DNA from: a virus
Direction: 5' to 3' (one strand)
Virus genome (UHGV): UHGV-0038964
DNA: 13,966 bases
The notes under the pieces were generated by a model. The model saw only the letters and a program-made list of their open reading frames with translations. It did no database searches and was not told the DNA's origin. Below, one piece after another: positions 1 to 13,966 of the stretch. Made by a program: the position numbers and the translations under genes. Within the stretch, counting starts at the first letter, position 1, and each line of letters begins with the position of its first letter.

Positions 1-171
1 CATCATACACTAAATCAGTAAGTTGGCAGCATCACCTACAACGGCATTACCGCTATGCATTGCTCATCTTACACACAGCGCAATGTTGATAGATAACCCC
101 AGCATGGAACATGGGTGAAACAGTAGGTCAGAGCTTCAGGCTCTGTGTTGTCAATACAGTGAGGCATAATT

Positions 172-381
172 ATGGCTTTCATTCCACCAACCATCGACGA
201 TGTTAGACATTGCTCTAACGCTTTATCTGTAGACCCCGCCGAAACCGACGCTGCCCGCGCCATTGCTGAACACTACTCAAAGATATCCAATCAGGAGTAC
301 CGCATCACCCAAGACGACCTGGATGACCTCACTGACACAATCGAATATCTCATGGCCACTAACCAGCCAGACTCACAATAA
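172..381 (+). CDS. coi: Coi-like C1-repressor inactivator (69 aa)
   Basis: ATG at 172 with a GAGG Shine-Dalgarno about 9 nt upstream; small acidic 69-aa protein directly upstream of and co-oriented with the 283-aa c1-like gene. Size and position match the P1 coi-c1 arrangement as I recall it. Confidence 0.6.
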   Translation: MAFIPPTIDDVRHCSNALSVDPAETDAARAIAEHYSKISNQEYRITQDDLDDLTDTIEYLMATNQPDSQ

Positions 382-397
382 ATGCACTAATAAATCT
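381..397 (+). promoter_or_regulatory. C1 operator-like 17-mer (AATGCACTAATAAATCT) between coi and c1
   Basis: 14/17 identity to the P1 C1 operator consensus ATTGCTCTAATAAATTT, read directly; it overlaps the coi stop codon and lies about 95 nt upstream of the c1 start, as expected for an autoregulatory site. Confidence 0.4.
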
Positions 398-426
398 ATT
401 ATTTTCGTTGGATCCTTCTATAATGG

Positions 427-469
427 TGGCCAACAACTCCCAGTGTAATTCGCTGTGAGTTGTTGGCCA
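427..469. repeat. Perfect 13-bp inverted repeat (TGGCCAACAACTC / GAGTTGTTGGCCA) with a 17-nt spacer, just upstream of the c1 ribosome-binding site
   Basis: Read directly: arms at 427-439 and 457-469 are exact reverse complements; the GGAGGAGG Shine-Dalgarno of c1 follows at about 479-486. Confidence 0.5.
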
Positions 470-491
470 TGTCAATTCTGGAGGAGGATCA

Positions 492-1343
492 ATGATAAAT
501 TATGTCTACGGCGAACAACTGTACCAGGAGTTCGTCAGCTTCAGGGATCTCTTTCTAAAAAAAGCTGTTGCACGCGCCCAACACGTTGATGCCGCCAGCG
601 ACGGTCGTCCTGTACGCCCGGTTGTCGTTCTGCCGTTCAAAGAAACGGACAGCATTCAGGCTGAAATTGATAAATGGACTTTAATGGCGCGGGAACTGGA
701 ACAGTACCCAGACCTCAATATCCCAAAGACTATTTTATATCCTGTGCCTAACATCCTTCGCGGTGTGCGTAAGGTTACGACCTATCAGACAGAAGCTGTA
801 AACAGCGTCAACATGACCGCTGGCCGCATTATTCATCTGATTGATAAGGACATTCGCATCCAAAAAAGCGCGGGGTTCAATGAGCACAGTGCGAAATACA
901 TAGAGAACCTGGAAGCAACAAAAGAGCTAATGAAGCAGTACCCGGAGGATGAAAAATTCCGTATGCGCGTACACGGCTTTAGCGAAACAATGCTGCGCGT
1001 TCACTACATCTCCAGTAGTCCTAACTACAATAACGGTAAATCAGTTAGTTACCATGTGCCGCTGTGTGGCGTGTTTATCTGCGATGAAACTCTCCGTGAT
1101 GGAATCATCATCAACGGTGAATTCGAGAAAGCAAAATTTAGCCTTTATGACTCCATAGAACCGATCATCTGCGACCGCTGGCCACAAGCAAAAATATATC
1201 GCCTGGCAGATATTGAAAATGTAAAAAAACAAATTGCCATCACTCGCGAAGAGAAAAAGGTTAAGTCAGCCGCATCAGTTACGCGCAGCCGTAAAACCAA
1301 GAAGGGGCAGCCAGTAAACGACAACCCCGAAAGCGCGCAATAA
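492..1343 (+). CDS. c1: C1-like master repressor of lysogeny (283 aa)
   Basis: ATG at 492 with GGAGGAGG 5 nt upstream; 283 aa with a Lys/Arg-rich C-terminal tail. Length, the coi partner upstream and C1-operator-like sites elsewhere in the window fit P1 C1. The identification rests on recalled length and context, not on an alignment. Confidence 0.7.
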   Translation: MINYVYGEQLYQEFVSFRDLFLKKAVARAQHVDAASDGRPVRPVVVLPFKETDSIQAEIDKWTLMARELEQYPDLNIPKTILYPVPNILRGVRKVTTYQTEAVNSVNMTAGRIIHLIDKDIRIQKSAGFNEHSAKYIENLEATKELMKQYPEDEKFRMRVHGFSETMLRVHYISSSPNYNNGKSVSYHVPLCGVFICDETLRDGIIINGEFEKAKFSLYDSIEPIICDRWPQAKIYRLADIENVKKQIAITREEKKVKSAASVTRSRKTKKGQPVNDNPESAQ

Positions 1344-1346
1344 ATT

Positions 1347-1376
1347 ATGCCCGGCATCAACCGGGCATTCTTCCAT
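1347..1376. terminator. Bidirectional intrinsic terminator between convergent c1 and the HNH-motif gene
   Basis: Stem ATGCCCGG (1347-1354), loop CATCAA, stem CCGGGCAT (1361-1368); T-rich sequence follows on the + strand (TCTTCCATTATT) and on the - strand (AATTTATTG). Confidence 0.6.
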
Positions 1377-2387
1377 TATTCAGCCGCCACCGGTTTTAAC
1401 AAGCCAGCATCGAGCAGTTTACGCGTCAACCACTGCTGGCCTTTACCCGTTAATTGAGGCGTCAACCGTATCTGATAGCCATCTTCATCATCCAGCACCA
1501 CTTCTTTCACCGTGAAATAATCGACTATGACGAACGATATAAGGCGTAATGTGAGCGCCAGCTCCCGCAGCTCCACAGCCACAGCATGGACGGGAAGCCA
1601 CAAAGTCCATGTACTCGGGCAATTTTAGCGATTGAAGTTTTGGTATTTTGAAATGCGCCATACCTGGGTCGGAGTCAACATCCACAGGGCATACTTTTGC
1701 ACGCATCGGCGCGGCGCGTTCTTCCATCATTTGAACATATGCTGTAGCGCGATCGTCATACGGGCGAATATCCGCCTCTTTCAGAGGTCCGCTATCCTGC
1801 GGAGTAGCCTTCATCTTATTTATTGATATGCGGCAGACTTCTTCCGGCATCAGGTGCATCATGTTGCGCATGAAAGCCCACCAGCACAGCTCCTGAATAC
1901 TTAAATCATGGCTATTTGAAAGGCCCATTTCCTGACGGGCGACATCCAGTATCCAGTTAACGCGATTATTGTGCAGCGTTTCTTTCAGCTCATTAAAACC
2001 ACGCATCCGGTAATGGTTATCGTGATGCCAGCACAACAACACCGCGCTATTGTCTCGTTCTGCGTGGACAATATGGTTGTCACACCAACTACGATCTGCG
2101 GCCTGGCATTGACCCTCTTTCCTACGCAACCACGCCACCAGCGCGTCAATTCCACCAATACGGCGAAACAGTTCATCGCTGTTAAAAAACGGCTGCAACG
2201 CCTCATTTGTTGCCATGGTTTGCTCCGTAACAACGAGGCCGTCTTCCATGTGCTCGATTAACTCACGCGGCACCGGCTCCATAATAAATTTACGGCCAGC
2301 CTCCACCAGCTTTCGGACCTCCTGATCCACTTTGAACGTGGCGAGGCCAAGCTCTTTCTGTACAAAGGGAGTAATTACGGCTTTCAC
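1376..2387 (-). CDS. HNH-motif protein (DUF968-like guess) with an apparent frameshift; main frame 1488-2387, C-terminal segment continues in another frame at 1376-1603
   Basis: GTG start at 2387 with AAGGTG 5 nt upstream. Internal motif CDNHIVH...N...LLCWHHDNH resembles an HNH/zinc-finger nuclease core. The last 35 residues of the 299-aa frame are low-complexity ([14 protein letters not shown]...), while the overlapping frame encodes a protein-like 75-aa tail. Confidence 0.5.
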
Positions 2388-2414
2388 ATCACACCTTTAA
2401 TCACTGATTGGGCT

Positions 2415-2594
2415 TTATCTGCTGCCCGGCATTATCTGTTTAAGCACAACCATTTCCTGACGGCATAACACAGCAATAGCAGTCCTGGCTCCAATTTGCT
2501 TACCAACCAGGTATTGCTTTACCTCGCGGCGACTCACGCCATCAAGAAGCATCTTTAACGCTTCACGGGACAATTTGTTGTATTTGCGTGCCAT
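2415..2594 (-). CDS. Small basic protein (59 aa), possible helix-turn-helix; post-doc gene
   Basis: ATG at 2592-2594, four nt after the doc stop codon (2599-2601); Lys/Arg-rich. The track ORF 2415-2615 begins further upstream inside doc, so I trimmed it to the first ATG after doc. Confidence 0.4.
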   Translation of the reverse strand: MARKYNKLSREALKMLLDGVSRREVKQYLVGKQIGARTAIAVLCRQEMVVLKQIMPGSR

Positions 2595-2598
2595 TAAT

Positions 2599-2979
2599 CT
2601 ACTCCGCAGAACCATACAATCTACGTAACGTGGCGGCGACAGAAGATACAGATATCTCGCCAGTCGCAGCGCCTACAGTAAGGTCTGCCAGTTCAGGTGA
2701 ATCAAATACCTGCACCCCGTTACGGCGTAGAAATAGCAGCGCACTGTTTAGCGCGGTACGCTTATTGGCATCATTGAATATATGCCCTCTCGCTGTAGCC
2801 ACCAGGTAGGTGGCGGAGACTTCGAAAAGGTCGGTGATCTCTTCGTAGGCAACTCTGGCCTGAACTCTCCCGATAATGGCCTCTGCCCTACCCGGATCTG
2901 ACATTCCCGGCAGGCCGCCGTAGCGGCTTATATTCGCATCATGAAGCGCAATAAGTTCTTCCGGTGATATATGCCTCAT
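2599..2979 (-). CDS. doc: Doc toxin (Fic-fold kinase, death-on-curing), 126 aa
   Basis: Protein [22 protein letters not shown]... with the Fic/Doc motif [11 protein letters not shown]; matches P1 Doc as I recall it. Its ATG overlaps the phd stop (TAATG). Confidence 0.9.
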
Positions 2980-3200
2980 TATCGGTTAACCAGTTCCTTG
3001 TTGGTGGAGTCCAGGGTGTCAAACAGGGATGCAAATTCAGCATCCAGCGCCGCTTTTTTGTAGGCTTCGAAAGTAGCCTTGCTGACAATTACTGCTGGCT
3101 CACGGCCTCTGCGGGTGATTTCAACCTCTTCCCCGGCTTCAACATTGTTGAGCACTTCAGAAAGGTTGCCGCGCGCGGTACGGAAGTTAATGGATTGCAT
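2979..3200 (-). CDS. phd: Phd antitoxin (Phd/YefM family), 73 aa
   Basis: [41 protein letters not shown]... matches P1 Phd as I recall it; true ATG at 3198-3200 with GAGGTG upstream. The track start at 3206 is a GTG two codons earlier. Confidence 0.9.
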
Positions 3201-3206
3201 AAACAC

Positions 3207-3233
3207 CTCGTGTACTCGTTATGTGTACACAAT
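3207..3233. promoter_or_regulatory. Putative Phd/Doc autoregulatory operator (GTGTAC core at 3210-3215 and palindrome TGTGTACACA at 3222-3231)
   Basis: Two GTGTAC-containing sites immediately upstream of the phd start, one a perfect 10-bp palindrome. Phd is known to autoregulate at palindromic sites in its promoter; the exact site sequence is not recalled. Confidence 0.35.
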
Positions 3234-3272
3234 TATAAACTTCACAGGCATAAAGCACCAGCACTTTGCAGC

Positions 3273-3662
3273 TTAAATCACCGGACAGTCATCAAATTCC
3301 CCACTTCGGGCATCATTGATGACATGAGTGATCACACCAAAAACAGCATTACTACCCGTGTAACCATCGTCATCTACTGGTAACGCCTCTTTCTTCCCGG
3401 TGCTTAAATCCTCCAGGTGCTGGCGCGGATACTTTCGGTATCTCTTTATGCGATATTCACCCTCCATAGCGCAGACAAGCAGCGAACCATCAACCGGAGT
3501 AAGCGAGGAATCAACCACCAGCAAAGCACCCTGCAATATTCCCTCACGGTGATGGCTGTCTGCCGCCCGCATGAAGTATGTCGCTGATGGATGCCTGATT
3601 AGTTGCTGATCAAGAGAAATTCTGCTTTCAACATAATCCGCCGCAGGAGAAGGGAAGCCCAT
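3273..3662 (-). CDS. humD: HumD, UmuD'-like polymerase V accessory subunit homologue (LexA/S24 peptidase fold), 129 aa
   Basis: ATG at 3660-3662 with GAGGTGA upstream; UmuD'-like sequence; gene order humD-phd-doc as in P1; LexA box immediately upstream. Confidence 0.8.
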   Translation of the reverse strand: MGFPSPAADYVESRISLDQQLIRHPSATYFMRAADSHHREGILQGALLVVDSSLTPVDGSLLVCAMEGEYRIKRYRKYPRQHLEDLSTGKKEALPVDDDGYTGSNAVFGVITHVINDARSGEFDDCPVI

Positions 3663-3681
3663 AGCGTTTTCACCTCAACAA

Positions 3682-3701
3682 TACTGTTTATTTATACAGT
3701 A
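3682..3701. promoter_or_regulatory. LexA (SOS) box TACTGTTTATTTATACAGTA
   Basis: CTGT at 3684-3687 and ACAG at 3696-3699 with an 8-nt AT-rich spacer; a perfect CTGT-N8-ACAG palindrome about 20 nt upstream of the humD ATG, in the divergent region shared with the + strand gene at 3837. Confidence 0.75.
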
Positions 3702-3836
3702 TACATTAAAGAGACACCTTTGGTGCAAACGCGTTATGTACATCAACCACCGCAGATGATTTTGTGCGCTTTGCTACTATTCATCACCAACGGATCAGCG
3801 TAACCTCGTTGCCAATCAGTTAATAAGGAATTAGCT

Positions 3837-4412
3837 ATGCCTAATCGCATTCCTCTCGATCCTGTATTGCCCAAAAATTTTGACTGCACTCCTAACGAGA
3901 AACGCTCTAAAGCTCAGCTGGACGCCTGGTGGGATCATCCGTATGGAGTTACACAATCTGACGGGAAAATTGTTGTTTTTTGTCTAAACGGTGGCGCGTG
4001 GGACCGTCCATCCATGCTTTGTTTGGCAGATAACTATGATGACGCCTGTGAACTTGCAGAAAGAAAGCAGGCAAGCTGGGTAAAAACACGGTCTAAACCG
4101 TCATTCATGTTTTCAATAGAACCGCCATTTATCCTAGCAAGGATGCCGCAGCGACCAGACCAGGAACAGCAAGAGATTGTTGCCGAATTTGATTCAAGGG
4201 AAGAAATGAACCTCTTCACGATGAAACAGGAACAAGAAGAGAATCTTGGAGTTTCACCATTTTTGGATCACAAGAGTATGAACCTCGACCTGCTTATCTG
4301 GTACAGCAATGAGCTTGAGTTATCGCTGTCCCGGCTTGAAAAAGAAAAAGCAGCTATCCAGGCACAACGTGAAGCTGTGTTGGCGCGGATTAAAGAAGTA
4401 CAGAACGGATGA
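3837..4412 (+). CDS. Hypothetical protein (191 aa) with a coiled-coil C-terminus; divergent from humD
   Basis: ATG at 3837 with AAGGAA 7 nt upstream; no overlapping competitor ORF; the C-terminal 60 aa are heptad-like (LELSLSRLEKEKAAIQAQREAVLARIKE). Function unknown. Confidence 0.55.
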   Translation: MPNRIPLDPVLPKNFDCTPNEKRSKAQLDAWWDHPYGVTQSDGKIVVFCLNGGAWDRPSMLCLADNYDDACELAERKQASWVKTRSKPSFMFSIEPPFILARMPQRPDQEQQEIVAEFDSREEMNLFTMKQEQEENLGVSPFLDHKSMNLDLLIWYSNELELSLSRLEKEKAAIQAQREAVLARIKEVQNG

Positions 4413-4418
4413 TTGCTG

Positions 4419-4682
4419 TTATTTTTTGATGGTATCGTCTTTTTGGTATACCGGATCGCTTCCCTTTGGCAACTGGAGGCTTAACTGCCGGTAGTGCCGT
4501 AGACGTTCCATGAAATAGGTGCGCAGGTTCTCTGGTTGCTCGCGGGCTACCTGTTCAGCTATGACAGGTATGTTCAATCGCTCTTTGTAGGCAACCCCCC
4601 TAGCAGCCAGGTCAACGTTAACTTTATTCCTTTCTTCCTGGCTTTTAGCTGCTATGTTCCATTCGTTCATATTAAATCCCAT
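4419..4682 (-). CDS. hot: Hot, homologue of DNA polymerase III theta subunit (HolE-like)
   Basis: The stretch [42 protein letters not shown] resembles E. coli theta ([42 protein letters not shown], recalled). Start is either the ATG at 4682 or the ATG at 4670. Confidence 0.7.
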
Positions 4683-5138
4683 CCAGAATAATTGAATAAC
4701 GGCTATTATTTAGTCGCCGCAATATCTTCAAAGTTTTTTTCTCACCCCATTGCTTTTTGCGCACAGCTTATCTGGCTTGCGGTGCGCCGAAATGTAAATT
4801 CGCCTTCAGAGTTATCCACAAAGTTATGCACTTGCAACGAGGCCATTTTCCTCATACTGTGTTTGCACACACAGGAAATGGATATTTTATTAATTGAATT
4901 TTATTAAATAATAATGATAAGGAGAAAATTTGAGATGTAATCATGACATTAATAGATAGGGCCTGCATTACAGGCCCCAACTACATCAAGGAATTCACAG
5001 TTCCCTGATTTTTATACCGAAAACATGTGCCGTAAGTTCACGTTAACGACTTTCTTTCACCGAATCCAACTATATAGAGGTTGGGTTTCTACGTCAACGT
5101 GAGAGCACACAGCTTTACATTTGACGAGGATTACCCTG

Positions 5139-5276
5139 ATGATTGTAATTTTTCAGTTTCTAAGTGCATTTTTAAATGCGCCTGTTCTTAGCCAAGTGCT
5201 GGCGATTGTCTTCATCGTGGTTCTGATATGGTTTTTCAAGTCAGTGATAAACAGAGGCGTGCGCTGGCTTATTTAA
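5139..5276 (+). CDS. Unannotated small hydrophobic protein (45 aa): MIVIFQFLSAFLNAPVLSQVLAIVFIVVLIWFFKSVINRGVRWLI
   Basis: Below the ORF-track size cutoff. ATG at 5139 with GAGGA about 8 nt upstream, TAA at 5274-5276; a single long hydrophobic segment with a basic C-terminus. It lies in a region otherwise free of coding sequence. Confidence 0.4.
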   Translation: MIVIFQFLSAFLNAPVLSQVLAIVFIVVLIWFFKSVINRGVRWLI

Positions 5277-5459
5277 TGTCGCGCTGAGATATTAATTCCC
5301 TTGCTGTTTAACCATTTTTTGTGTGTGCTGGTGAGCGTGTGAAGGCTCAATTTGTTGCCCACCAGTATTTACTATTTCTAAGCTCCACAGTGTCACTTCC
5401 GCACAAACAACTTAGCGCGGAATCAGTATTCGGCCCAAGATGTAAAAAGCCAACCTGCG

Positions 5460-5726
5460 TTATGGTTCGCATTTCCAAATAGTGTTCTGAACGCCCGTGC
5501 CGGGCGCGAGATGTGGATTAGCGTTCGCGCTATGCTGATATACGGCTTTAGACTTTCCATATTGCTGACAGGCTTTATCTGCGGTTTTTTGCAGGCTATC
5601 CAGCCCATACCAGCCATCAGACTGGATGCTTACCTTTTCACCGTCATTGTATTGCACCATTGCACACCCGGACATAGCCAGCATCGCACCGACAATAACG
5701 CTTTTCCATAAAACTCTATGCAACAT
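5460..5726 (-). CDS. Small lipoprotein (about 88 aa)
   Basis: Signal peptide MLHRVLWKSVIVGAMLAMSGC with a lipobox-like MSGC cysteine; the true start is probably the ATG at 5724-5726 (the track start at 5732 is a TTG). Confidence 0.55.
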   Translation of the reverse strand: MLHRVLWKSVIVGAMLAMSGCAMVQYNDGEKVSIQSDGWYGLDSLQKTADKACQQYGKSKAVYQHSANANPHLAPGTGVQNTIWKCEP

Positions 5727-5731
5727 ATACA

Positions 5732-5761
5732 AAAATCCCCTCTGTGAATTGAGGGGATTTT
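5732..5761 (-). terminator. Intrinsic terminator ending the upstream minus-strand operon
   Basis: Stem 5732-5742 pairs with 5751-5761 (AAAATCCCCTC / GAGGGGATTTT); on the - strand the stem runs into TTTTTGTAT. The same stem supplies the GAGGGG Shine-Dalgarno of the lipoprotein gene. Confidence 0.6.
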
Positions 5762-5795
5762 AGCATGGTGATCAGATATCAGCTTTATCAGGAAT

Positions 5796-6545
5796 TTAAT
5801 CAGCCTCCAGTGGCAATAACGCCTTAGCCATTTCATGAACCAACATGGCATCAATGACGCCTAGCGTATGGCCCGGCTTAATCTTTAATGCGGCCTCAAG
5901 ATAGCCTCTTTCCAGAGTGGTTTTTACGCTTTTCCTGGGCGCCTGTTGGGAACTATCCGGAAGATCCGGATGGTTCCCAGCCTCATAAGCTATCCGCAAC
6001 CAGTGCATGAATGTTTCCGCAGACACACAACCGCAGTCCACATCGATTTTCCCGCGTTGCTGTTCCAGCCATTGCCCAAAATCCAACCTGTAAGCCTTAC
6101 TTTCAAGTTCATCGCCATTGAACTCGACTTTCTGCGACGCTATGAGAGCTGATTCGTATTGTTCGCGAGTGACAACTGACTGGTATTCATCGCTATCAAG
6201 ATCACCAATTGGAAGCTCAATCTCACAACAAAAATTGCGCCCAAAGAACGTGTCTTTTTTGTGGTCTGAGCCAAAAGCAAAAGTCGCGCATGGCGCCATT
6301 AAATTGGCACTGAGCAGGCGACAATCGATCATACCATCAGGCCACCCGCCGCACTTAGGCAGCTCCTTCACTAACAAGTCGATAAGCTTCATTTTTTTAT
6401 CATCTTTGCTAGTTGCTAACGCCATTTTTGCAAGTCCAAATACTTCATCTGCCGTATATCCAGCACCGTGACCATACATTTCGATACGGGAAATAATCTC
6501 TGATATACGCTCTTTAGTGATTCTGGTCATTTCTTTTTGCGCCAT
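5796..6545 (-). CDS. Hypothetical protein (249 aa), last gene of the operator-gated operon
   Basis: ATG at 6543-6545; long ORF with no recognisable motif; followed by the terminator at 5732-5761. Confidence 0.5.
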   Translation of the reverse strand: MAQKEMTRITKERISEIISRIEMYGHGAGYTADEVFGLAKMALATSKDDKKMKLIDLLVKELPKCGGWPDGMIDCRLLSANLMAPCATFAFGSDHKKDTFFGRNFCCEIELPIGDLDSDEYQSVVTREQYESALIASQKVEFNGDELESKAYRLDFGQWLEQQRGKIDVDCGCVSAETFMHWLRIAYEAGNHPDLPDSSQQAPRKSVKTTLERGYLEAALKIKPGHTLGVIDAMLVHEMAKALLPLEAD

Positions 6546-6901
6546 TTCTTTTCACATTCCTTAGTCCATTTTTCAATGTTCATTTTGGCAATATCAGTCA
6601 TTCCATCGCCTAAGAAATACCTTTCCCGGTATGTCTTGCACTTAAACCACACTACAATAGCCACCAGCCAGAAAATAAAAGGCCAGACAGCAATACCAAC
6701 TACAGCCACGATAAAGTCCAATAGACACAAATGAAGCTCCCCTACTTCTGTTTCAGGCAATATCTTTAAAGAGTTAAACAGCAGACTGAACGAATGGTCG
6801 TATGCAGTAGCGCTATAAGACATACAATCCATATAATTAAAATCATAGCCTGCGGCTGCCGCCCATAATGGGCAGTCAAGAAAATGTTTGAATGTCATCA
6901 T
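6527..6901 (-). CDS. Hypothetical membrane protein (124 aa), Lys-rich C-terminus
   Basis: Tandem ATG ATG at 6896-6901; hydrophobic stretch LCLLDFIVAVVGIAVWPFIFWLVAIVVWF; 3' end overlaps the start of the 249-aa gene by 19 nt. Confidence 0.5.
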   Translation of the reverse strand: MMTFKHFLDCPLWAAAAGYDFNYMDCMSYSATAYDHSFSLLFNSLKILPETEVGELHLCLLDFIVAVVGIAVWPFIFWLVAIVVWFKCKTYRERYFLGDGMTDIAKMNIEKWTKECEKKWRKKK

Positions 6902-6967
6902 ATAAATTTAATCAGTTACACAGTGTGGCTGCTTCCCTGCCGTAACAGCAGGGTAATAAAGTTATAA

Positions 6968-7132
6968 TCAGTCTCCAGATAGAGATATAGCTAACGCACC
7001 AACGAGGAATAAGGTGCTACCAGCCAATGCACCGCAGCTCTCCGTTCCCCATTCAACGCCACCAGCCAAAGCCACAAAAAAACCACAAACACAGACAAAT
7101 ATAAACGTCGCCCAAAACTGTTTCTTTTTCAT
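6968..7132 (-). CDS. Unannotated small membrane protein (54 aa): MKKKQFWATFIFVCVCGFFVALAGGVEWGTESCGALAGSTLFLVGALAISLSGD
   Basis: Found by hand translation. Its ATG (7130-7132) overlaps the TAA stop of the upstream 97-aa gene (TAATG coupling); GGAG upstream; two hydrophobic segments. Confidence 0.45.
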   Translation of the reverse strand: MKKKQFWATFIFVCVCGFFVALAGGVEWGTESCGALAGSTLFLVGALAISLSGD

Positions 7133-7425
7133 TATGGGGTGCTCCAGTTATCTTCAATTACAATGCTCAACCTTTGTAGCCATTCTGCTAATTTCAGCAT
7201 TGCTTCTCTTTCGCTTAAACCACGCGGGAAATCATCAAGCGATATTGTTGGCTTGAAGTTCCCGAAATTATCCATTTCAACTGTCAGATTTTGCTCTAAC
7301 ACGGTATTCCTGACACGGCTATTGTGCCGAAGCAAATATACTGATCGTGATTCATTAGTTTTGTGGTCGAATTGATATTCGGTAAGTATCATCTGGCTTT
7401 TGCCATGACTATTACCTCTCCACAT
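7132..7425 (-). CDS. Hypothetical protein (about 97 aa)
   Basis: Track ORF 7132-7512 trimmed to the ATG at 7423-7425 (MWRGNSHGK...), which has a GAGG Shine-Dalgarno; the upstream part of the track ORF is instead taken by the 40-aa peptide in another frame. Confidence 0.45.
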   Translation of the reverse strand: MWRGNSHGKSQMILTEYQFDHKTNESRSVYLLRHNSRVRNTVLEQNLTVEMDNFGNFKPTISLDDFPRGLSEREAMLKLAEWLQRLSIVIEDNWSTP

Positions 7426-7432
7426 ACTTACC

Positions 7433-7555
7433 TCACTTAATAAAACAACTCCATGCGTAGTTGATGATTTTTTCCCACGCAATATAAATCTGCACTCCAG
7501 CAGTAAAACCAAAGCCTACAATTGCTGAAAAAATCAAAACATTTACTTTTGACAT
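7433..7555 (-). CDS. Unannotated small hydrophobic peptide (40 aa): MSKVNVLIFSAIVGFGFTAGVQIYIAWEKIINYAWSCFIK
   Basis: ATG at 7553-7555, TGA at 7433-7435; single transmembrane-like segment; ends 8 nt before the 97-aa gene start. The Shine-Dalgarno is weak. Confidence 0.35.
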   Translation of the reverse strand: MSKVNVLIFSAIVGFGFTAGVQIYIAWEKIINYAWSCFIK

Positions 7556-7603
7556 TATAAAATTTCTCTCGGTGTCGTAGGTGATAGCACCATAATTGAT
7601 AAT

Positions 7604-7936
7604 TTAGTGAGTTAGCAGCTTCATTTTTTTGATGATTTCCGCATGAGCATCATCGTTATCAACACTTAGCTCGTTTAATGCTTCTCGCACTACATCAACT
7701 TCTTCAGGCTGAAAGAAGTCGTCGCGGTAATCACCAAATAGAACCGAAACCAGCCTGGCACCAGCAACATCAAGATTAGCGCTAACAGGTGGCTCGATAT
7801 CTCGCCCACAATTCCAGGCTTTTTGGGCTTCTTCCAGCGTGTAAACATGAGCGCGATCGATATCAGAGCTGTAACCATTGCCGTTATGGCAATGGAATGA
7901 AGCGTTATTACCCACAGTTTCACGCGAGCACATCAT
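7604..7936 (-). CDS. Hypothetical acidic protein (about 110 aa)
   Basis: The track ORF begins at a TTG (7978) overlapping the upstream gene; the first ATG pair at 7931-7936 lies just after that gene's stop, so the start is placed there. Confidence 0.45.
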   Translation of the reverse strand: MMCSRETVGNNASFHCHNGNGYSSDIDRAHVYTLEEAQKAWNCGRDIEPPVSANLDVAGARLVSVLFGDYRDDFFQPEEVDVVREALNELSVDNDDAHAEIIKKMKLLTH

Positions 7937-7946
7937 GTAAAAACGG

Positions 7947-8528
7947 TTACTCACTGGTTGCCCCCTGAATACGCTCAAACTCGATTACCCAAACCCAGGG
8001 ATTAGCGTTCCAACTTTCTTCGCCATAAATTGATTCCCATAGGCTACGGAAACCTGGGTAATGCTTATCGCCAATGAGGGTAAATTCTGTTGGTGCGCCC
8101 TCAGCCCTTGCATCGCATTCGCTGATATCGTTCAACCGCTCAACGCGCACGTTGGTAATTTCCAGCAAAATGCGCGATGCCCAGCGCGGCATGTGAATTG
8201 ATGGCGTCCACTTTTCTGATACTGGCTTATTACAAACCTCAACCGGAACCCGGTGCGTTTGTTCTGTCCAGGAGTTACGCACGCTTGCGCGATAAACCAG
8301 CGTTGCGACGTCCGTCGCTTTGCCATGTACCCGGTAGGTTTCACGAACCCAAATACGATCTCCCGGTTGACCATATGGACAATGTTTAGCAAGCAACTCT
8401 GCGGCCACTGCCCGTCCATAGAATTTTTCTTCAACAATCCTGCGAGTCTGTGTTTTATTCCCGCCAAGAATTGCCCGGACCATCTCATCGTTGAAAATCA
8501 TGCCGCGCTCTTTCACTTCGCCTTTCAT
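7947..8528 (-). CDS. Hypothetical protein (193 aa), tentatively ASCH-like (N-terminal MIFNDEMVRAILGGNKTQTRR)
   Basis: ATG at 8526-8528 with AAGGGGGA upstream. The GxKT.TRR segment resembles the conserved ASCH/PUA-like motif; this is recalled pattern, not an alignment. Confidence 0.5.
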   Translation of the reverse strand: MKGEVKERGMIFNDEMVRAILGGNKTQTRRIVEEKFYGRAVAAELLAKHCPYGQPGDRIWVRETYRVHGKATDVATLVYRASVRNSWTEQTHRVPVEVCNKPVSEKWTPSIHMPRWASRILLEITNVRVERLNDISECDARAEGAPTEFTLIGDKHYPGFRSLWESIYGEESWNANPWVWVIEFERIQGATSE

Positions 8529-8537
8529 GCATCCCCC

Positions 8538-8624
8538 TTACCCATGCGCGACAATGCCGCCAAAAGTGATAGAGAACAGCCAGAAATAGATCGCGGCCAT
8601 AATGATTTTGAATGCCGTGTTCAT
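8538..8624 (-). CDS. Unannotated small hydrophobic peptide (28 aa): MNTAFKIIMAAIYFWLFSITFGGIVAHG
   Basis: ATG at 8622-8624 with AGGAG about 8 nt upstream; TAA at 8538-8540, overlapping the Shine-Dalgarno of the 193-aa gene; first ORF downstream of the C1-operator-like site. Confidence 0.35.
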   Translation of the reverse strand: MNTAFKIIMAAIYFWLFSITFGGIVAHG

Positions 8625-8652
8625 ATTTTCAGCTCCTGTGATTGATTGGATA

Positions 8653-8683
8653 CATGCCGCGCCTTGCGGCATGTTTTTATTTT
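8653..8683 (+). terminator. GC-rich palindromic hairpin (CATGCCGC-gcctt-GCGGCATG) followed by TTTTTATTTT on the + strand
   Basis: Read directly. On the + strand it has the form of an intrinsic terminator, although no convincing + strand gene precedes it; on the - strand it sits in the 5' leader of the operon, between the predicted promoter and the 28-aa ORF. Confidence 0.45.
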
Positions 8684-8706
8684 CACTTTCTCTGTTTTAA
8701 AAATCA

Positions 8707-8723
8707 ATATTTATTAGAGCAAT
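8707..8723 (-). promoter_or_regulatory. C1 operator-like 17-mer (minus-strand reading ATTGCTCTAATAAATAT) with promoter-like elements just downstream
   Basis: 16/17 match to the C1 consensus ATTGCTCTAATAAATTT. On the - strand it is followed by TTGATT, a 17-nt spacer and GAAAAT, a plausible -35/-10 pair for the operon at 5796-8624. Confidence 0.55.
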
Positions 8724-9166
8724 TATTGTTGATGGAGAAGCGCGTTTTCATACTCCCTGACCATTAACGTAAGCACGCCGTGCCTCCTGAAAACACGCGC
8801 CACTTCAATCTTATCTTCCAGCGCGAACGCGATTTTACTTAGACCAATTTTCTTAAGGAGATCAATCTTTGCTGGGCCGTCATTTCTGTCATCGGTGGCA
8901 GGACGCATAGATAGCAAAGGCTCAGCCCCGTTTGTTACGTACTTCCGCAGCCAGGCTCGTGTTTTATCCCTTGCGATCTCACAGCGCCCGGTTACAAACC
9001 AGACCGTGTAAACGTTAAATAACTGGCGCACAATATCAATAACTGGAGTTATGGGAGTATCAGTGTCACAGGCGAGATTAAACTCGTTCCAGTCCTTTGT
9101 TAATGCACCTTTACCTGGTGGCGGAAGCAAATGCAGTCTGTCTTCAGTTGCCTCTGATATTGTTCC
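8723..9166 (-). pseudogene. 3' portion of a HAD-superfamily (DxDGT) phosphatase gene split by the IS3-family element
   Basis: The reading frame is open from the insertion junction at 9166 to the stop at 8723. Joined to the opposite flank it reads ...PYIVIVDIDGTISEATEDR...VWFVTGR...DKTR...ATDDRNDG, the HAD motif order, resembling the phosphatase domain of polynucleotide kinase-phosphatase. Confidence 0.6.
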
Positions 9167-9184
9167 TGAATCGCCACAGATAAT

Positions 9185-10090
9185 CTAGACACTTCCGAGC
9201 CGCTGATAATATTGTTTTTCGTATTCAGTTGGTGGCATATGATCACTCGAACCATGCCGACGCTTACTGTTATAAAACATTTCGATGTAATCAAAAATAT
9301 CACCGCGAGCTTCTTCTCGCGTTCCGTAGATCTTTTTCTTTATCCGTTCACGTTTCAGTAACTGGAAAAAACTTTCTGCGACTGCGTTGTCATGACAGTT
9401 ACCGCGACGGCTCATACTGCCCTCCAGCCCGTGTGATTTCAGGAACGACTGCCACTCATAGCTTGTGTACTGACTGCCTTGATCAGAATGAACCAGCACC
9501 TGCTTTTGAGGATTACGTCGCCACACGGCCATCAGAAGTGCATTCAGGACAATATCCTTTGTCATCCGGGGCTGCATTGACCAGCCAATAACTTTGCGCG
9601 AGAACAGGTCAACAACCACAGCCAGATACAGCCAGCCTTCGTGAGTCCGGATGTAGGTGATGTCCGTTACCCAACGCTCATCCGGTGCTTCCGGGTTGAA
9701 CTGCCGCTGGAGCCTGTTGGGCGTCACGATGCTGGTTTCACCCTTACGTGCCCGTGGGCTACGGTACCCGACCTGAGCCCTTATCCCGGCACGCTTCATC
9801 AGTCGCCAGACACGGTTAACTCCGCACTGTTGTCCGGTATCCCGCAGGTCGAGGTGGATCTTGCGATAACCATAAACGCAACCCGACTCCAGCCAGAACT
9901 GCTTTATCAGCCCCGTCAGTCTCAGGTCAGCATGATGCCGCCGTGAATCCGGCTGCTGAAGCTAGGCGTAAAAACCACTCGGATGCACATCCAGCACCCG
10001 ACAAAGCAGTCGGACAGGCCAGCAATGGGTGTTGTCACGGATAAAGGCGTACCTCAGTCGGACAGCTTTGCGAAGTACGCCGCGGCTTTT
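9185..10090 (-). pseudogene. IS3-family transposase orfB (DDE catalytic domain), interrupted by an in-frame TAG
   Basis: The orfB frame is open from the slippery site (about 10090) and reads ...LLCRVLDVHPSGFYA, then TAG at 9962-9964, then LQQPDSRRHHADLRLTGLIKQFWLESGCVYGYRKIHLDLRD... continuing into the track ORF 9185-9799. Confidence 0.7.
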
Positions 10091-10332
10091 TTTAATATGT
10101 CCCGTTCGTCGGTAACCCGCTTCAGCTCTTTCTGGAGGCGTCGGATCTCAGCCTGAGCGTCTGACTGGACTTTATTGGTTGAGGAATCCGGGCCATATGC
10201 CTTTATCCAGGCATAAAGACTGTGGGTGGTGATACCGAGACGTGTTGCCACGCTGGAAACAGAATGGCCGCGATCAACAACCTGTTTTACCGCTTCAATT
10301 TTAAACTCTTCGGGATAACGCTTACCGCTCAT
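10054..10332 (-). CDS. IS3-family transposase orfA (helix-turn-helix / leucine-zipper part)
   Basis: ATG at 10330-10332 with GAGAGG upstream (the track start at 10338 is a GTG); ends ...DILKKAAAYFAKLSD. The ATATTAAAAAAAGCC slippery heptanucleotide at 10085-10099 marks the -1 frameshift into orfB. Confidence 0.8.
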   Translation of the reverse strand: MSGKRYPEEFKIEAVKQVVDRGHSVSSVATRLGITTHSLYAWIKAYGPDSSTNKVQSDAQAEIRRLQKELKRVTDERDILKKAAAYFAKLSD

Positions 10333-10392
10333 GGGCACCTCTCTTTAAGTCATCTTAAATGACTCTGAGGTGTCTGTTAAACCCGTGGCGAT

Positions 10393-10461
10393 TCATCCAT
10401 CAATATCAACTATGACGATATACGGACGTTCCTGGTGTGCGTGTTTATTGAAAATACTCAA
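10393..10461 (-). pseudogene. 5' portion of the same HAD phosphatase gene (LSIFNKHAHQERPYIVIVDIDG), cut off by the IS
   Basis: In frame with the 3' portion once the IS and one TCC copy are removed. The only candidate start is the TTG at 10459-10461, with GGAGGG 4 nt upstream; the IS terminal TGA now supplies the stop. Confidence 0.45.
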
Positions 10462-10480
10462 ATGCCCTCCTCATTGGACG

Positions 10481-10513
10481 AAAAAAATGCTGGTGGGCGC
10501 ACTCCACCAGCAT
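10481..10513 (-). terminator. Intrinsic terminator downstream of the 420-aa gene
   Basis: Stem ATGCTGGTGG (10487-10496), 7-nt loop, stem CCACCAGCAT (10504-10513); on the - strand the stem is followed by a run of seven T. Confidence 0.6.
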
Positions 10514-10533
10514 TAAAAGTGACACTGTAACTG

Positions 10534-11796
10534 TCAGCGAACGTAAATAGTGCCGCCGTTCTCTTTTTCCCATGCATCGCTACGTGCATAGCAAACATCG
10601 AGAAGTCTTCTTGCCGCTGTTTCCTCTAAACCCAATTCGACAACCAACTGCTCATGACGGCGGGTAACCACATCAAACAGGGTATGCAGCCCTTTAGCTG
10701 CCAGATCATCAATAAATTCCGGTTCGAACGGCAGCTCTGCATCTGCCAACATAACCTCTTGCGCCCACTCGACACGGCGGACCAGTTCCGGGCGGCGGCT
10801 TTCCATCTCTTTACAGATCAATTCATGGAAGAACTCTACCCAACCTTCCGGCTGGAACTCGCGGAAAATGGCCAGCGGCTGGAAGTTTGGCATCAACCAT
10901 TCGTTGATTCGGATATCAATGGCATAGCCCATGTCGCAGCAGAACTGATAAGCAAAGTCCAGCTTAGAAACGATATAAGGACGCTCGTTATTGAACTCTT
11001 TAGGCGATGAGATCCCATAAGCCAGGAGGCGCGGGAAGAAGGAGATTTGCCCTAACGTCGGATGAAGTTTGCTTGCAGGGAAACGGCGCTCAGTAATGCC
11101 ATACATTTCCTTCTTGAGCGTCGCAAATTTGGCATTCTCATTAACCAGCGCGGTAACCTCTGCTTTTTTATTAGCAAATGCCACGCGCGCTTCGCTTGCA
11201 TCTTTAATAGTTTTTTTGAGCTGTTGGTTAAGATCGGCGACCTGCTTACGCAGTTCCTGTCGCTCGCTTTTAGCTTTGTTATAGCGTTTCTCAAGGTTAA
11301 AAGGATCAAGTTTCATGATCTCTTTATATTGAGATTTTAGCGTTGAAATCTGTGAGTTCCGCAGTTCAACCATCGCGGTCATTTCATTGAGTTTTGTTTC
11401 CAGCTCAATGCTTATACGTTCGGCATTATCAGCACGCTGGTTGGCGTCATGCGTCGCATCGTCGATCGCGTCCTGTTGCTGGCGTTTCAAATGTTCAATT
11501 TGTAGCTGAAGCTCTTCAATTTCTTTACCCTTCAGACCGAGATCCAACTGCATATTTTCAGCTGCATCTACCAGGGAGTTATGGCTATCAGCTTCTGCGT
11601 TATAAACATCAATAAGCTGTGCGTGAAGCATCTCCGCTGACTGAACCGCATTATCAAAAAAACGCGCTGTGAGGTCATCACAACTAACGCGGCGTTGCGC
11701 GGCCCGGATGTTCTGGATAATGGCTGGGATACCGGCATTCAGGACGTCAGGGATAGATACATTTTCGATTGATTGGTTTTGTGCTGAAGTGCTCAT
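10534..11796 (-). CDS. Hypothetical protein (420 aa): N-terminal coiled coil of about 200 aa plus a C-terminal globular domain
   Basis: Long clean ORF with its ATG at 11794-11796. Residues about 80-230 are heptad-rich and charged (EIEELQLQIEHLKRQQQ..., ERQELRKQVADLNQQLKK); the C-terminal half is aromatic and Cys-containing. No recognisable catalytic motif. Confidence 0.6.
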   Translation of the reverse strand: MSTSAQNQSIENVSIPDVLNAGIPAIIQNIRAAQRRVSCDDLTARFFDNAVQSAEMLHAQLIDVYNAEADSHNSLVDAAENMQLDLGLKGKEIEELQLQIEHLKRQQQDAIDDATHDANQRADNAERISIELETKLNEMTAMVELRNSQISTLKSQYKEIMKLDPFNLEKRYNKAKSERQELRKQVADLNQQLKKTIKDASEARVAFANKKAEVTALVNENAKFATLKKEMYGITERRFPASKLHPTLGQISFFPRLLAYGISSPKEFNNERPYIVSKLDFAYQFCCDMGYAIDIRINEWLMPNFQPLAIFREFQPEGWVEFFHELICKEMESRRPELVRRVEWAQEVMLADAELPFEPEFIDDLAAKGLHTLFDVVTRRHEQLVVELGLEETAARRLLDVCYARSDAWEKENGGTIYVR

Positions 11797-11797
11797 T

Positions 11798-12016
11798 TCA
11801 AAGTTCCGTATTAGCTTGTGCTTCGGTCATTTTTCCTAAGTATGAAGGTGGAAGGACTACGCAATTTGTATCCAGTCCCTCACCTATGGCAGCCTGTAAA
11901 ATTCTGGCTAAGGTGAGTCTCTTGTTGCGATACCTGGTGATTACATGCCTGATACCGCCGGTCGGCGTAACAAAGGCGATCAGCCAGTAGTGATATTTCC
12001 GTCGGAATGGCCACAT
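11798..12016 (-). CDS. Hypothetical small protein (72 aa), first gene after the paired C1-operator-like sites
   Basis: ATG at 12014-12016 with AAGGTG upstream; its stop lies 1 nt from the 420-aa start, indicating translational coupling. Confidence 0.45.
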   Translation of the reverse strand: MWPFRRKYHYWLIAFVTPTGGIRHVITRYRNKRLTLARILQAAIGEGLDTNCVVLPPSYLGKMTEAQANTEL

Positions 12017-12030
12017 AGCGCACCTTGTAG

Positions 12031-12096
12031 ATTGCTCTAATAAAAAACGTGATGAGTGTACATCACGTTTTAAAAATATGAAATTATTAGAGCAAT
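12031..12096. promoter_or_regulatory. Two inverted C1 operator-like 17-mers flanking a 10-bp-stem hairpin
   Basis: ATTGCTCTAATAAAAAA at 12031-12047 (+ orientation); ATTGCTCTAATAATTT as the reverse complement of 12081-12096; between them AAACGTGATG-agtgta-CATCACGTTT (12045-12070), which on the - strand is followed by TTTTTT. Confidence 0.55.
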
Positions 12097-12097
12097 A

Positions 12098-12799
12098 TTA
12101 TTCTGATTCTCGCTCAAAAAATGAGCTGATAAGGGGAAGCCAATCCTCTGACACTTCGCGAGGTCGCGGTTTGCCGTGGAAAAAGATTATTCGGCAGTCT
12201 TTTGGTAATGCCCCATTCCCCCTGGAGTAACGCGCGCTCGCATATTTTGAACCAGGTTCCACAACATCGGCCTTGTAACTTACAAACCATCCTGGATACA
12301 GATCCTGAAATGCTGGTGTATCATCGCCCATAACCTTTCGTAAGAACCCCTGGTCACCCCAGCACTCAGTAGTGACACAACGAGAAATCCAACCTTCCGG
12401 ATCTTGCCAGAATGAACTCCAGATATGCGCTTTTACACTATTTGGTATCCACAGGGCACCGCTACCACGATATTGTGGATGGTAAAAATCCCTAAGCATG
12501 GTGAAGCTGGTTGGTGGATTCTCAAGGATTGGGCGTATATCACCGGCAATAACTGTGTCCAAATCCAGATAGAACAGATCATCTGTTATATCCGGTCGGA
12601 ACAACTCGATTTTCGTCCACCAGCCACGGCACTTTTGCCACTGGTTGATCAATGGGACAACTTTGACGCCAGGTACATGTAAACGCTTCAGGTCTGTCAG
12701 GCAAATAATTTCATAGCCTTTTGGCAGTTGATTAACCAGCCACTGCACATCGGAAGCGTTATAGTCACCACCAGAGCGAAGAACTAAAGCAATCTTCAT
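12098..12799 (-). CDS. Hypothetical protein (233 aa), tentatively a nucleotide-sugar (DxD) transferase-like protein
   Basis: ATG at 12797-12799 overlaps the ppp stop (ATGA coupling). The segment [13 protein letters not shown] resembles a DxD glycosyltransferase motif; the assignment is weak. Confidence 0.5.
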
Positions 12800-13488
12800 G
12801 CTGCACCATCACCTTTCACTTTCATCAATGTCAGGTTTCCGCAAAATACGGCACCAGTGTCGATATAATGCTGATTCCAGAATGTCTTCGGGCTTTTCAC
12901 CGGAGTGTGACCAAAGATAAAACGATCTGCGCCCGAAATTTCGCCACCAATATCATCCATCGAATCACTGATACGCTCGCGCGCCCAGACAACGTTGAAA
13001 AGCGGCACCTCCTTACCGAATTGATATTCATTATCCGGATAGTCGGCATGGGCTATAACGATAGTTTCTTGCCCGGTGTTCAACTCAATGATATAGGGCA
13101 GTCGTCTTACCAACTCCACCAGCGCCCTGGCTAATATTTCCTGATCAGCGTCCAGCATGAAGAACCATTGACCGCCATTCATTAGCCAATTATTCACGTT
13201 GCCATCAGGACTTAACGCATCAATCATCAGCCGCTCATGGTTGCCCATAACCGCTCTGAACCATGGCATCTGCAATAGCTCCAAGCATTTAACATTTTCG
13301 GTGCCGCGATCGATAAGGTCGCCGACCGATATCAGTAAATCCTGCGCAGGGTCAAAATCCACACGATGGAGTTCGGACATCAGTCTGGTGTAGCAACCAT
13401 GCAGATCACCAACAACCCAGATATTCCTGTATTTGGTACCGTCGATACGGTGATAAATTGTTGGTGCCATCATGTATTCTTCAGCCAT
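12796..13488 (-). CDS. ppp: Ser/Thr protein phosphatase of the lambda-phosphatase (PPP/calcineurin-like metallophosphatase) family
   Basis: All three signature motifs are present: GDLHGC, GDLIDRG and GNHE. The start may instead be the ATG at 13471-13473 (MMAPTIY...), which overlaps the upstream stop (ATGA). Confidence 0.85.
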
Positions 13489-13814
13489 TCTTTAAGAGTC
13501 ATCTGCGGAATACCTCCCATTTTCCCGCATGAAACAACGTCAATCTGTTCACGCGCAGACTGGAATAACAAAGGCAGGTGACTTAGATTTTTTGGCGTGC
13601 CGCCGGAATGAACGCGTGGTTCTTGCGTAGCGTCAACGCCCACCAGGGCTACATGTTTGAATCCGATATGGAAAGCCAGGTTCAGAGCACCATATGCACT
13701 ATTGCCGCTGGCAATTTCATTCTCATCTTCGCAAAGGCCGAAATGTGCGGACCAGCGCCACGCCCACCACTCGGGAGAATTCGTATTTTTTGGCTCCGTG
13801 CCGCGCTCAGCCAC
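13470..13814 (-). CDS. Hypothetical protein (about 114 aa), start uncertain
   Basis: The frame opens after a stop at 13884-13886; the first candidate start is a GTG at 13812-13814 with a poor Shine-Dalgarno. An overlapping ORF in another frame (13682-13894) begins with ATG, so a frameshift or wrong start is possible. Confidence 0.35.
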
Positions 13815-13966
13815 ACGACGGAAGCACAGAACGCCGTCTCTGACCTCACGTTCTTTAACATCGGGTAACCTTTTTTCTGCCCTTCAGCCTTCATTTTCCC
13901 GGCGGTTGCTTTTGAACGTTTCCCTCTGAAGTGGTTTACTGAATTTGGCCACCTGAACAGAGGTGA

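Follow-up and report, generated by a model that had tools for sequence, protein, structure and literature searches.

The closest described relatives of the locus analysed here belong to phages P1 and P7. In these and other P1/P7-type elements pap (P1_gp094), a gene of 168 codons, closes the C1-controlled pmgR-pmgS-pap operon, and it has been annotated since the P1 genome record. Its label differs by record, and may be putative acid phosphatase, 3'-phosphatase (the RefSeq name in P1 and P7) or bifunctional 3'-phosphatase/5'-kinase. The gene was non-essential in a CRISPRi screen of P1, and also in earlier work cited there (PMC10695390).

Two further systems serve for comparison. The phosphatase domains of T4 polynucleotide kinase-phosphatase (T4 PNKP; 1ltq, 2ia5 and 5uj0) and Capnocytophaga Pnkp1 (4xrp) have a HAD fold with a DxDxT nucleophile motif. 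Residues R176, R213 and D254 of the T4 enzyme are reportedly essential, according to mutational work from the Shuman laboratory. The IS3-family elements, which are about 1.2 kb long, have imperfect terminal inverted repeats with TG...CA ends, encode HTH and DDE (rve) domains in two open reading frames that are joined through -1 frameshifting at an A-rich slippery site such as an A7 run, and generate a short target duplication of 3-4 bp. P1-type genomes are known to carry other insertion sequences, such as IS1 in P1 and IS903 in P7, the latter likewise tolerated in a non-essential region.

In the window, that is, the whole 13,966-nucleotide stretch of DNA that was analysed, the gene pap is interrupted at codon 22 by an IS3-family element. 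The reading that we favour, with a probability of about 0.9, is that transposition of this element into pap produced a null allele, and that the event, which disabled a known accessory gene, was recent and probably neutral.

The interrupted gene and its empty site

The surroundings of the gene are those of P1 and P7. On the minus strand, pmgR (11798-12016) and pmgS (10534-11796), identified from the open reading frame list and the P1 and P7 annotation, precede pap in its C1-controlled operon. At the other end, the beginning of the next transcription unit is marked by a C1 repressor operator of the Op88/OpmgT type (8707-8723; minus-strand sequence ATTGCTCTAATAAATAT), which was located from its place in the annotated P1 and P7 genomes and overlaps with the stop codon of pap. 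The present gene is the pap gene of P1 and P7, 168 residues long, after pmgS and before Op88/pmgT, but its allele is interrupted.

The insertion leaves two fragments on the minus strand. The 5' fragment (10396-10461), defined by translation and the P1 and P7 annotation, starts with TTG at 10459-10461 and spans codons 1-22 (MSIFNKHAHQERPYIVIVDIDG); it holds the nucleophile D19 and D21, reads ...DIDG and is ended at once by a TGA, the three bases with which the IS end opens. The 3' fragment (8723-9166), defined by translation and alignment to P7 and T4, spans codons 22-168 and the stop codon; T80-G-R82, D113/R115/D117, K121 and E138-D139 are all present in it and the nucleophile is absent.

The IS occupies 9167-10395 (1229 bp) between two copies of TCC, at 9164-9166 and 10396-10398, and all the coordinates given in the preliminary description hold. 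Read on the gene strand, TCC becomes GGA and encodes Gly22 in the pap motif D19-I-D21-G22-T23. The claim that an IS3-family element lies in the DxDGT motif and splits it at the Gly codon is thus borne out by the junctions and by the empty site, and so is the view of the TCC repeat as the mark of a real transposition, since TCC occurs twice here and only a single time at the empty P7 site. A 3-bp repeat by itself would count for little (1 in 64); it is the empty-site comparison that makes the case for transposition decisive. The boundaries of the IS are likewise not down to chance, because six independent copies in other replicons have exactly the same 1229-bp span in differing contexts.

Removal in silico of the IS and one TCC yields a 168-codon open reading frame that runs from the TTG codon to a stop codon at 8723-8725, and its translation is exactly that quoted when a frame of about 168 codons was first proposed. 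The restored 801-bp region agrees with P7, in which pap is uninterrupted, at 800 of 801 positions, with a single TCC and no difference at the junction. The restored protein is one residue (L165F) apart from P7 Pap, and at the DNA level the identity to P1 is 97%. Over the whole restored window (12734 bp), 12733 positions are identical to plasmid pESA118_2, in which pap is intact, and at least eight plasmids match both flanks at 100%, each in two pieces within a span too short to contain the IS. The search for an uninterrupted allele among P1-like relatives, suggested earlier, therefore succeeded in P7, in pESA118_2 and in at least eight near-identical plasmids. The intact allele is by far the commonest (cluster P0001, 2547 member sequences). 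The exact pap::IS junction, on the other hand, was absent from 50,697 phage records, 72,556 plasmids and 5,426 complete E. coli genomes.

The IS3-family element

The IS is on the minus strand and has the same direction of transcription as pap; it was classified by copies with identical ends, by NCBIfam model NF033516 and by Pfam. Its ends are 5'-TGAATCGCCAC...GTGGCGATTCA-3', of the TG...CA type. The left terminal inverted repeat, on the orfA side and ending in TG, lies at 10363-10395 and the right one at 9167-9199 (both minus strand); they agree at 11 of 11 terminal bases and at about 24 of 33 overall. The orfA frame (10054-10332, minus strand; open reading frame list and Pfam) encodes 92 residues from an ATG and contains HTH_Tnp_1. 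The orfB frame (9185-10093, minus strand; open reading frames and Pfam) contains HTH_21 and the rve DDE domain and is broken by an amber codon. The two frames overlap at an A7 slippery run (10087-10093, minus strand; IS positions 303-309), where a programmed -1 frameshift from orfA to orfB is predicted from the frames and from the label 'programmed frameshift' that RefSeq gives to identical copies. The 382-residue OrfAB, rebuilt with Trp at codon 124, scores 436.9 bits against NF033516, the IS3-family equivalog (cut-off 160).

The six other 1229-bp copies with the same ends are found in five E. coli chromosomes and one Klebsiella quasipneumoniae plasmid. The sole difference of the present IS from them is window base 9963 (TGG to TAG), which converts W124 of the reconstructed OrfAB into an amber codon (9962-9964, minus strand); the codon is TGG in six of six. 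The change appears private to the present copy, but it rests on one base and could be a sequencing error. The amber codon cuts OrfAB at residue 123 of 382, ahead of the catalytic domain, and for this reason the copy is probably non-autonomous: it belongs to the IS3 family by descent and differs from other members, including the element encoding WP_094283415.1, in its private W124 amber codon and the loss of the catalytic domain. A clean 3-bp duplication flanks only two of the six other copies (TTG, and CGA in ycaN), and the rest may have been rearranged by IS-IS recombination.

In RefSeq the transposase of the same element (WP_094283415.1) is named only 'IS3 family transposase'. We presume that the element may be ISEhe3 or a close isoform. 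The ISEhe3 papers give neither a sequence nor an element length; the orfA that they describe has 92 residues, consistent with the present orfA.

Pap as a PNKP-type HAD phosphatase

The restored protein had been proposed to be a HAD phosphatase of the T4 PNKP type, and four lines of analysis (PF25109, profile, alignment and fold) agree with this proposal. Pap matches Pfam PF25109 (HAD_PNKP) with 46.3 bits (cut-off 27.6, E 6.1e-12), a family that is also precomputed for Pap homologues; no NCBIfam model was found for Pap. A profile built from 49 relatives matches Pnkp1 (4xrp) at E 1.7e-28 and T4 PNKP at 5.9e-25 and 6.8e-24, with the alignment spanning the entire phosphatase domain (T4 residues 158-301). 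The profile was needed to reach T4 PNKP, because a search of the PDB sequences with Pap as single query gave only a marginal match to Pnkp1, together with spurious matches to de novo TIM barrels. The AlphaFold2 model of Pap has a pLDDT of 90.7, and its top Foldseek matches are 5uj0 (the T4 Pnkp 3' phosphatase, E 4.6e-9), 4xrp and 2ia5. By family membership and fold, Pap is placed in the HAD phosphatase clade of the T4 PNKP 3'-phosphatase domain, as a stand-alone protein. Its relatives form 3134 clusters at E<=1e-3 and are mostly stand-alone proteins of 145-170 residues.

The alignment to T4 pairs D165, D167, R176, R213, D254, K258, D277 and D278 with Pap D19, D21, R31, R82, D117, K121, E138 and D139, so the active-site Arg, Asp and Lys residues are conserved. 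Motif I is D19-I-D21-G-T23, aligned to T4 D165, D167 and T169, and its D19, D21 and T23 are invariant in the 49 diverse relatives. Motif II is T80, equivalent to T4 S211; motif III is K121 (in 'GPAK'), and motif IV is E138-D139 (in 'ALEDK'), in which the first acidic residue is Glu and not Asp. Both K121 and D139 are invariant among the relatives. R31, R82 and D117 occupy the PNKP-specific positions, with R31 and R82 at least 90% conserved; the R176-R31 pairing depends on the HMM alignment, as MAFFT puts the insert elsewhere. Of the HAD motif order first read from the gene (DxDGT, TGR, K, DD), the DxDGT and TGR assignments stand. The other two have to be moved: the Lys of 'DKTR' is not that of motif III, the family-invariant Lys being K121 in the alignment to T4, and the segment 'ATDDRNDG' aligns to T4 D250-T-R-K-D254 and not to motif IV.

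Several features set Pap apart from T4 PNKP and Pnkp1. It is a stand-alone protein of 168 residues without the kinase domain, and its motif I is followed by about 15 inserted residues (LLPPPGKGALTKDW), among them Trp47, which is invariant in the family. The absence of the N-terminal P-loop 5'-kinase domain is seen in the Pfam search, in which only the phosphatase is above the cut-off and no kinase family is among the matches, and no partner ligase or kinase is encoded near pap. The public label '3'-phosphatase, 5'-polynucleotide kinase' consequently overstates the gene. The clade membership suggests that Pap would act as a 3'-phosphatase on polynucleotide or nucleotide 3'-phosphates. Its activity and specificity could nevertheless differ from those of T4 PNKP, to judge from Glu-Asp in place of Asp-Asp in motif IV and from Asn at the position of T4 K253.

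The carrier and the origin of the insertion

The preliminary description took the carrier to be a phage-plasmid. In an intact P1-type element pacA/pacB and lpa are expected between c1 and pdcB; the window has neither there, and tblastn of PacB, PacA, Lpa and PmgO of SJ46 against it gave no match. The pdcB-like gene and pmgP are truncated, and IS1 and an IS911-like end delimit the P1-derived DNA. The carrier is a decayed, IS-bounded P1 remnant without pacA, pacB and lpa, and the relevance to infection that had been suggested for the gene is accordingly weak here. Near-identical plasmids suggest that the source replicon is probably a remnant outside positions 1-13966 as well. The case differs in this respect from IS903 in P7 and IS1 in P1, which involve other insertion sequences and other targets, the present carrier being a deleted remnant with further flanking IS.

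The sequence of events that best explains these observations can be outlined as follows. The 1229-bp IS3-family element entered pap and duplicated 3 bp, GGA (TCC on the plus strand), of the Gly22 codon in motif I. The insertion would leave a null allele, in which the upstream piece ends after 22 residues at the TGA supplied by the IS and the downstream piece is without the Asp nucleophile; we infer that Pap function is lost. The TGG to TAG change in the IS would truncate the transposase and so probably render the copy immobile by itself. The event appears to be recent, because the flanking sequence hardly departs from intact alleles and the IS is one base off the copies with which it was compared. 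It was also probably neutral, because pap is dispensable in P1 and last in its operon, because the following genes are served by a promoter and operator of their own, and because the carrier is already a decayed remnant from which the packaging genes and the late activator are gone. Polarity on the genes downstream was considered and is unlikely, since in P1 the pap stop codon is abutted by Op88 and closely followed by predicted pmgT promoters.

A misassembly, in which a repeat was collapsed or misplaced into pap, is the least credible of the other explanations. Many Enterobacteriaceae genomes hold several copies of the IS, as many as 17 matching places in one E. coli genome, and the junction recurs in no other record searched; yet both junctions are base-precise, with exact IS termini known elsewhere and a clean duplication of a sequence that the empty site contains once, target duplications are not produced by misassembly, and the present copy bears its private base change. 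A better, though still unlikely, alternative concerns the gene rather than the insertion: Pap may be a non-specific class B/C acid phosphatase that acts on free nucleotides and small phosphoesters instead of healing ends, an activity that the IS would have ended. The P1 and P7 records name pap a putative acid phosphatase, the Pap profile finds class C acid phosphatases at E 7.5e-5 and 2e-4 and AphA at E 1.2e-3, e(P4) and AphA are among the fold matches of the model, and the T4 phosphatase itself also hydrolyses 3'-dNMPs. The match to Pfam Acid_phosphat_B is weak (E 0.024), however, and at 14.6 bits falls below the curated cut-off of 27, whereas that to PF25109 is above its own; the PNKP phosphatase clade matches at least 20 orders of magnitude better than the acid phosphatases and supplies the top fold matches, and the PNKP-specific R31, R82 and D117 are conserved.

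Selection for the insertion is also improbable, at odds only a little better than those of misassembly. It would mean that loss of Pap benefits a non-lytic P1-derived plasmid, in which a 3'-phosphatase may be costly or disturb host RNA repair, and that pap is a recurrent target. Further truncated or fused pap alleles do exist in public data (P0024, P0025, P0027, P0029, P0030 and P0034), at least two of which have the 3' part of pap replaced by variable-region genes, and the IS target falls between the arms of a perfect 8-bp inverted repeat, a rare context found at 0.37% of positions. Against this, truncations are expected in a dispensable gene that adjoins a hypervariable region, the intact allele remains far commonest and is kept by the near-identical plasmids, and the insertion, missing from all three collections, is apparently a one-off. 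A preference of the IS for palindromes was rejected too, as a single post hoc case that is not seen at the two other clean-duplication sites. A wider conjecture, which we put forward as a long shot, is that stand-alone Pap-type 3'-phosphatases might have a dedicated phage or plasmid role, for example in healing or blocking 3'-phosphate or 2',3'-cyclic-phosphate ends left by host defence nucleases, and that the recurrent pap truncations in P1 derivatives confined to the plasmid state, this palindrome-centred IS included, might be selected loss once lytic growth is gone. The role and substrate of these phosphatases are a general question that the present window does not advance.

With transposition into pap as the preferred reading, the finding matters little beyond correct annotation: the locus is best described as a pap::IS3-family pseudogene instead of two hypothetical ORFs, and the surrounding element as a defective remnant of P1. 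As private features, the insertion and the amber base can also serve as strain or plasmid-lineage markers within widespread, near-identical mosaic resistance plasmids.

The insertion in pap and the inserted element

The gene interrupted in the window is pap (P1_gp094), which is described as a 'putative acid phosphatase' in P1 and P7 records and as a '3'-phosphatase' in newer ones. It is split by a 1,229-bp insertion sequence (IS; 9167-10395) that is transcribed from the minus strand, in the same direction as pap, and is flanked on both sides by a TCC target duplication (9164-9166 and 10396-10398). The junctions read 5'-...GATATTGTTCC/TGAATCGCCAC...GTGGCGATTCA/TCCATCAATATC...-3', and the IS ends form inverted repeats that match at all 11 terminal bases and at about 24 of 33 positions overall. 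In silico excision of the IS and one TCC copy gives a 168-codon open reading frame on the minus strand (TTG start at 10459-10461, stop at 8723-8725), exactly as quoted in the preliminary description. Read on the gene strand, the duplication is GGA and encodes Gly22 of the D19-I-D21-G22-T23 motif.

A 3-bp repeat by itself is weak evidence for insertion (1 in 64). At the level of sequence comparison, two independent checks make the case decisive: identical IS ends elsewhere and an existing empty site. Base-by-base comparison finds the same 1,229 bp with the same ends in other contexts, namely five Escherichia coli chromosomes and a Klebsiella quasipneumoniae plasmid. Over 801 bp, the restored region agrees with phage P7 at 800 positions, with a single TCC and no difference at the junction, and the restored 12,734-bp window differs by one base from pESA118_2, an E. 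albertii plasmid with intact pap. The uninterrupted allele is thus present in relatives with contiguous flanks, and in at least eight plasmids both flanks are matched at 100% in two pieces, which in each plasmid fall within a span too short for the IS. Coordinates, ends and empty site all agree with the IS3-family insertion and intact TCC duplication first proposed.

The transposase scores 436.9 bits against NCBIfam NF033516 (cut-off 160) and contains the Pfam domains HTH_Tnp_1, HTH_21 and rve. Its orfA overlaps orfB at an A7 slippery run (10087-10093), for which identical copies of the IS carry a programmed frameshift annotation. Together with the TG...CA termini and the 3-bp duplication, these features assign the element to the IS3 family; it may be ISEhe3-like. 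Compared with six other copies, this copy differs by a single base, at 9963 (IS position 433), which creates a private amber codon (TGG to TAG, 9962-9964) at W124 of the reconstructed 382-residue frameshift-fused transposase, OrfAB. The shortened transposase ends ahead of HTH_21 and the DDE domain and lacks both, so that this copy, unless base 9963 is a sequencing error, is probably non-autonomous and unable to move by itself.

The restored target reads TGATATTG-TTCCAT-CAATATCA, which places TCC inside the 6-nt spacer of a perfect 8-bp inverted repeat (9155-9166 and 10399-10406) made by the codons for S-I-T-G-D-I-D. Such spacers account for only 0.37% of the positions in the restored window; the palindrome was noticed post hoc, and two other sites where this IS has inserted do not show it.

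Pap as a PNKP-type phosphatase

The assignment of the 168-residue product, Pap, to the haloacid dehalogenase (HAD) superfamily, and to the type found in the phosphatase domain of T4 polynucleotide kinase-phosphatase (T4 Pnkp), is supported by Pfam, profile search, structure modeling and residue mapping. Restored Pap matches PF25109 (HAD_PNKP) with 46.3 bits (curated threshold 27.6). A profile of 49 relatives matches Capnocytophaga Pnkp1 (4xrp, E 1.7e-28) and T4 Pnkp (5uj0, E 5.9e-25; 1ltq, E 6.8e-24), covering the whole phosphatase domain (T4 residues 158-301). The best structural matches of the AlphaFold2 model (pLDDT 90.7) are the T4 Pnkp 3'-phosphatase domain and Pnkp1, followed by class B/C acid phosphatases and other HAD enzymes. 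Exhaustive search places 3,134 representative clusters in the family (E<=1e-3), mostly stand-alone proteins of 145-170 residues, with a few of about 300 residues in which this domain is C-terminal, as it is in T4.

Mapped through the profile, T4 Pnkp residues D165, D167, T169, R176, S211, R213, D254, K258, D277 and D278 correspond to Pap D19, D21, T23, R31, T80, R82, D117, K121, E138 and D139, respectively; all 49 aligned sequences share D19, D21, T23, K121 and D139. At the family level the preliminary description is therefore right, while two of the motifs named in it have to be corrected: the catalytic lysine is not that of 'DKTR' but K121, which aligns to T4 K258, and 'LEDK' (E138-D139, aligned to T4 D277-D278), not 'ATDDRNDG', is motif IV. 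Unlike T4 Pnkp, Pap lacks a kinase domain, and the public label '3'-phosphatase, 5'-polynucleotide kinase' therefore overstates the gene. From these relationships we infer the enzymatic activity and substrate of Pap.

An IS-bounded P1 remnant

At its left edge (1-36) the window holds the terminal 36 bp of an IS1, which in pESA118_2 are continuous with an annotated IS1B, and at its right edge an IS911-like element of the IS3 family contributes its first 40 bp (13927-13966); the P1-derived DNA between them (37-13926) is therefore an IS-bounded island. About 300 bp past the IS911-like end, pESA118_2 carries an IS30 transposase gene. The genes pacB, pacA and lpa, which separate c1 from the pdcB-like gene in SJ46, the P1-type genome used for comparison, and in other P1-type genomes, are absent: c1 (492-1343) is followed by a truncated DUF968/pdcB-like gene (1488-2387, residues 1-290 of 347), and the two are linked by 174 bp (1343-1517) that do not match the SJ46 locus at the nucleotide level. 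Compared with SJ46, another deletion of about 1.2 kb has removed the first 46 pmgP codons, the whole of pmgO and part of pmgM, leaving 65 bp of pmgM-side sequence (13862-13926) before the IS911-like end. Judged by gene content, the loss of pacB, pacA and lpa and the truncated pdcB-like gene mark a defective, non-packaging P1 remnant. The carrier is thus not an intact phage-plasmid, and a role of pap during infection, as first suggested, does not hold for this element.

The addiction module genes doc (2599-2979) and phd (2979-3206) are intact and adjoin humD, lxr and hot homologues. Retention of phd-doc and c1 may explain the persistence of the remnant. The C1-controlled pmgR-pmgS-pap operon ends with pap, whose stop codon in P1 directly adjoins the operator Op88/OpmgT, with predicted pmgT promoters just past it. 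An operator of this type (ATTGCTCTAATAAATAT on the minus strand, 8707-8723) overlaps the pap stop codon in the window, corresponding to the P1 position. Because c1 is also present, the remnant may still repress these operons.

The same remnant, 100% identical except for the IS, occurs in plasmids including NZ_CP070289.2 and NZ_AP027516.1 (comparison loci L011, L012 and L013). Their hosts are E. coli, E. albertii, Shigella flexneri and Salmonella, and the sources include humans, pigs, poultry and wastewater. Both carrier plasmids that were examined are mosaics rich in IS elements, with IS1 copies and MobI(A/C), and the two fetched are typed as IncHI1B by MOB-suite. In the 50 kb of pESA118_2 that were read completely there are also qnrS2 and IS26, and only scattered P1-type genes (a site-specific integrase and Ref), with c1 and phd-doc in the matching segment.

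Effect of the insertion and dispensability of pap

The upstream fragment of pap encodes 22 residues (MSIFNKHAHQERPYIVIVDIDG) and ends at a TGA formed by the first IS bases; as the downstream fragment lacks the nucleophile, the pap::IS allele would be null. A polar effect on neighbors is unlikely to matter, because no gene of the operon follows pap and the next unit has a promoter of its own. In P1, a genome-wide CRISPRi screen scored pap as non-essential, as did earlier work cited there (PMC10695390). We read the insertion as the recent and probably neutral inactivation by an IS of an accessory gene that is dispensable, within a prophage-plasmid fragment already in decay. Public annotation already includes pap, its family assignment and the IS; only the exact pap::IS junction was not found in the collections searched.

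Other P1-like contigs in public data carry truncated or fused pap alleles (L014 2501-2809 and L015 2501-2800, proteins P0025 and P0027), and further variants are P0024, P0029, P0030, P0034 and P0014. In these alleles either the first 42-68 codons are joined to unrelated variable-region sequence downstream (Ead/Ea22-like and DUF4752 genes) or part of pap is deleted internally. They are consistent with pap lying at the edge of a recombination-prone variable region, where it is dispensable and repeatedly lost.
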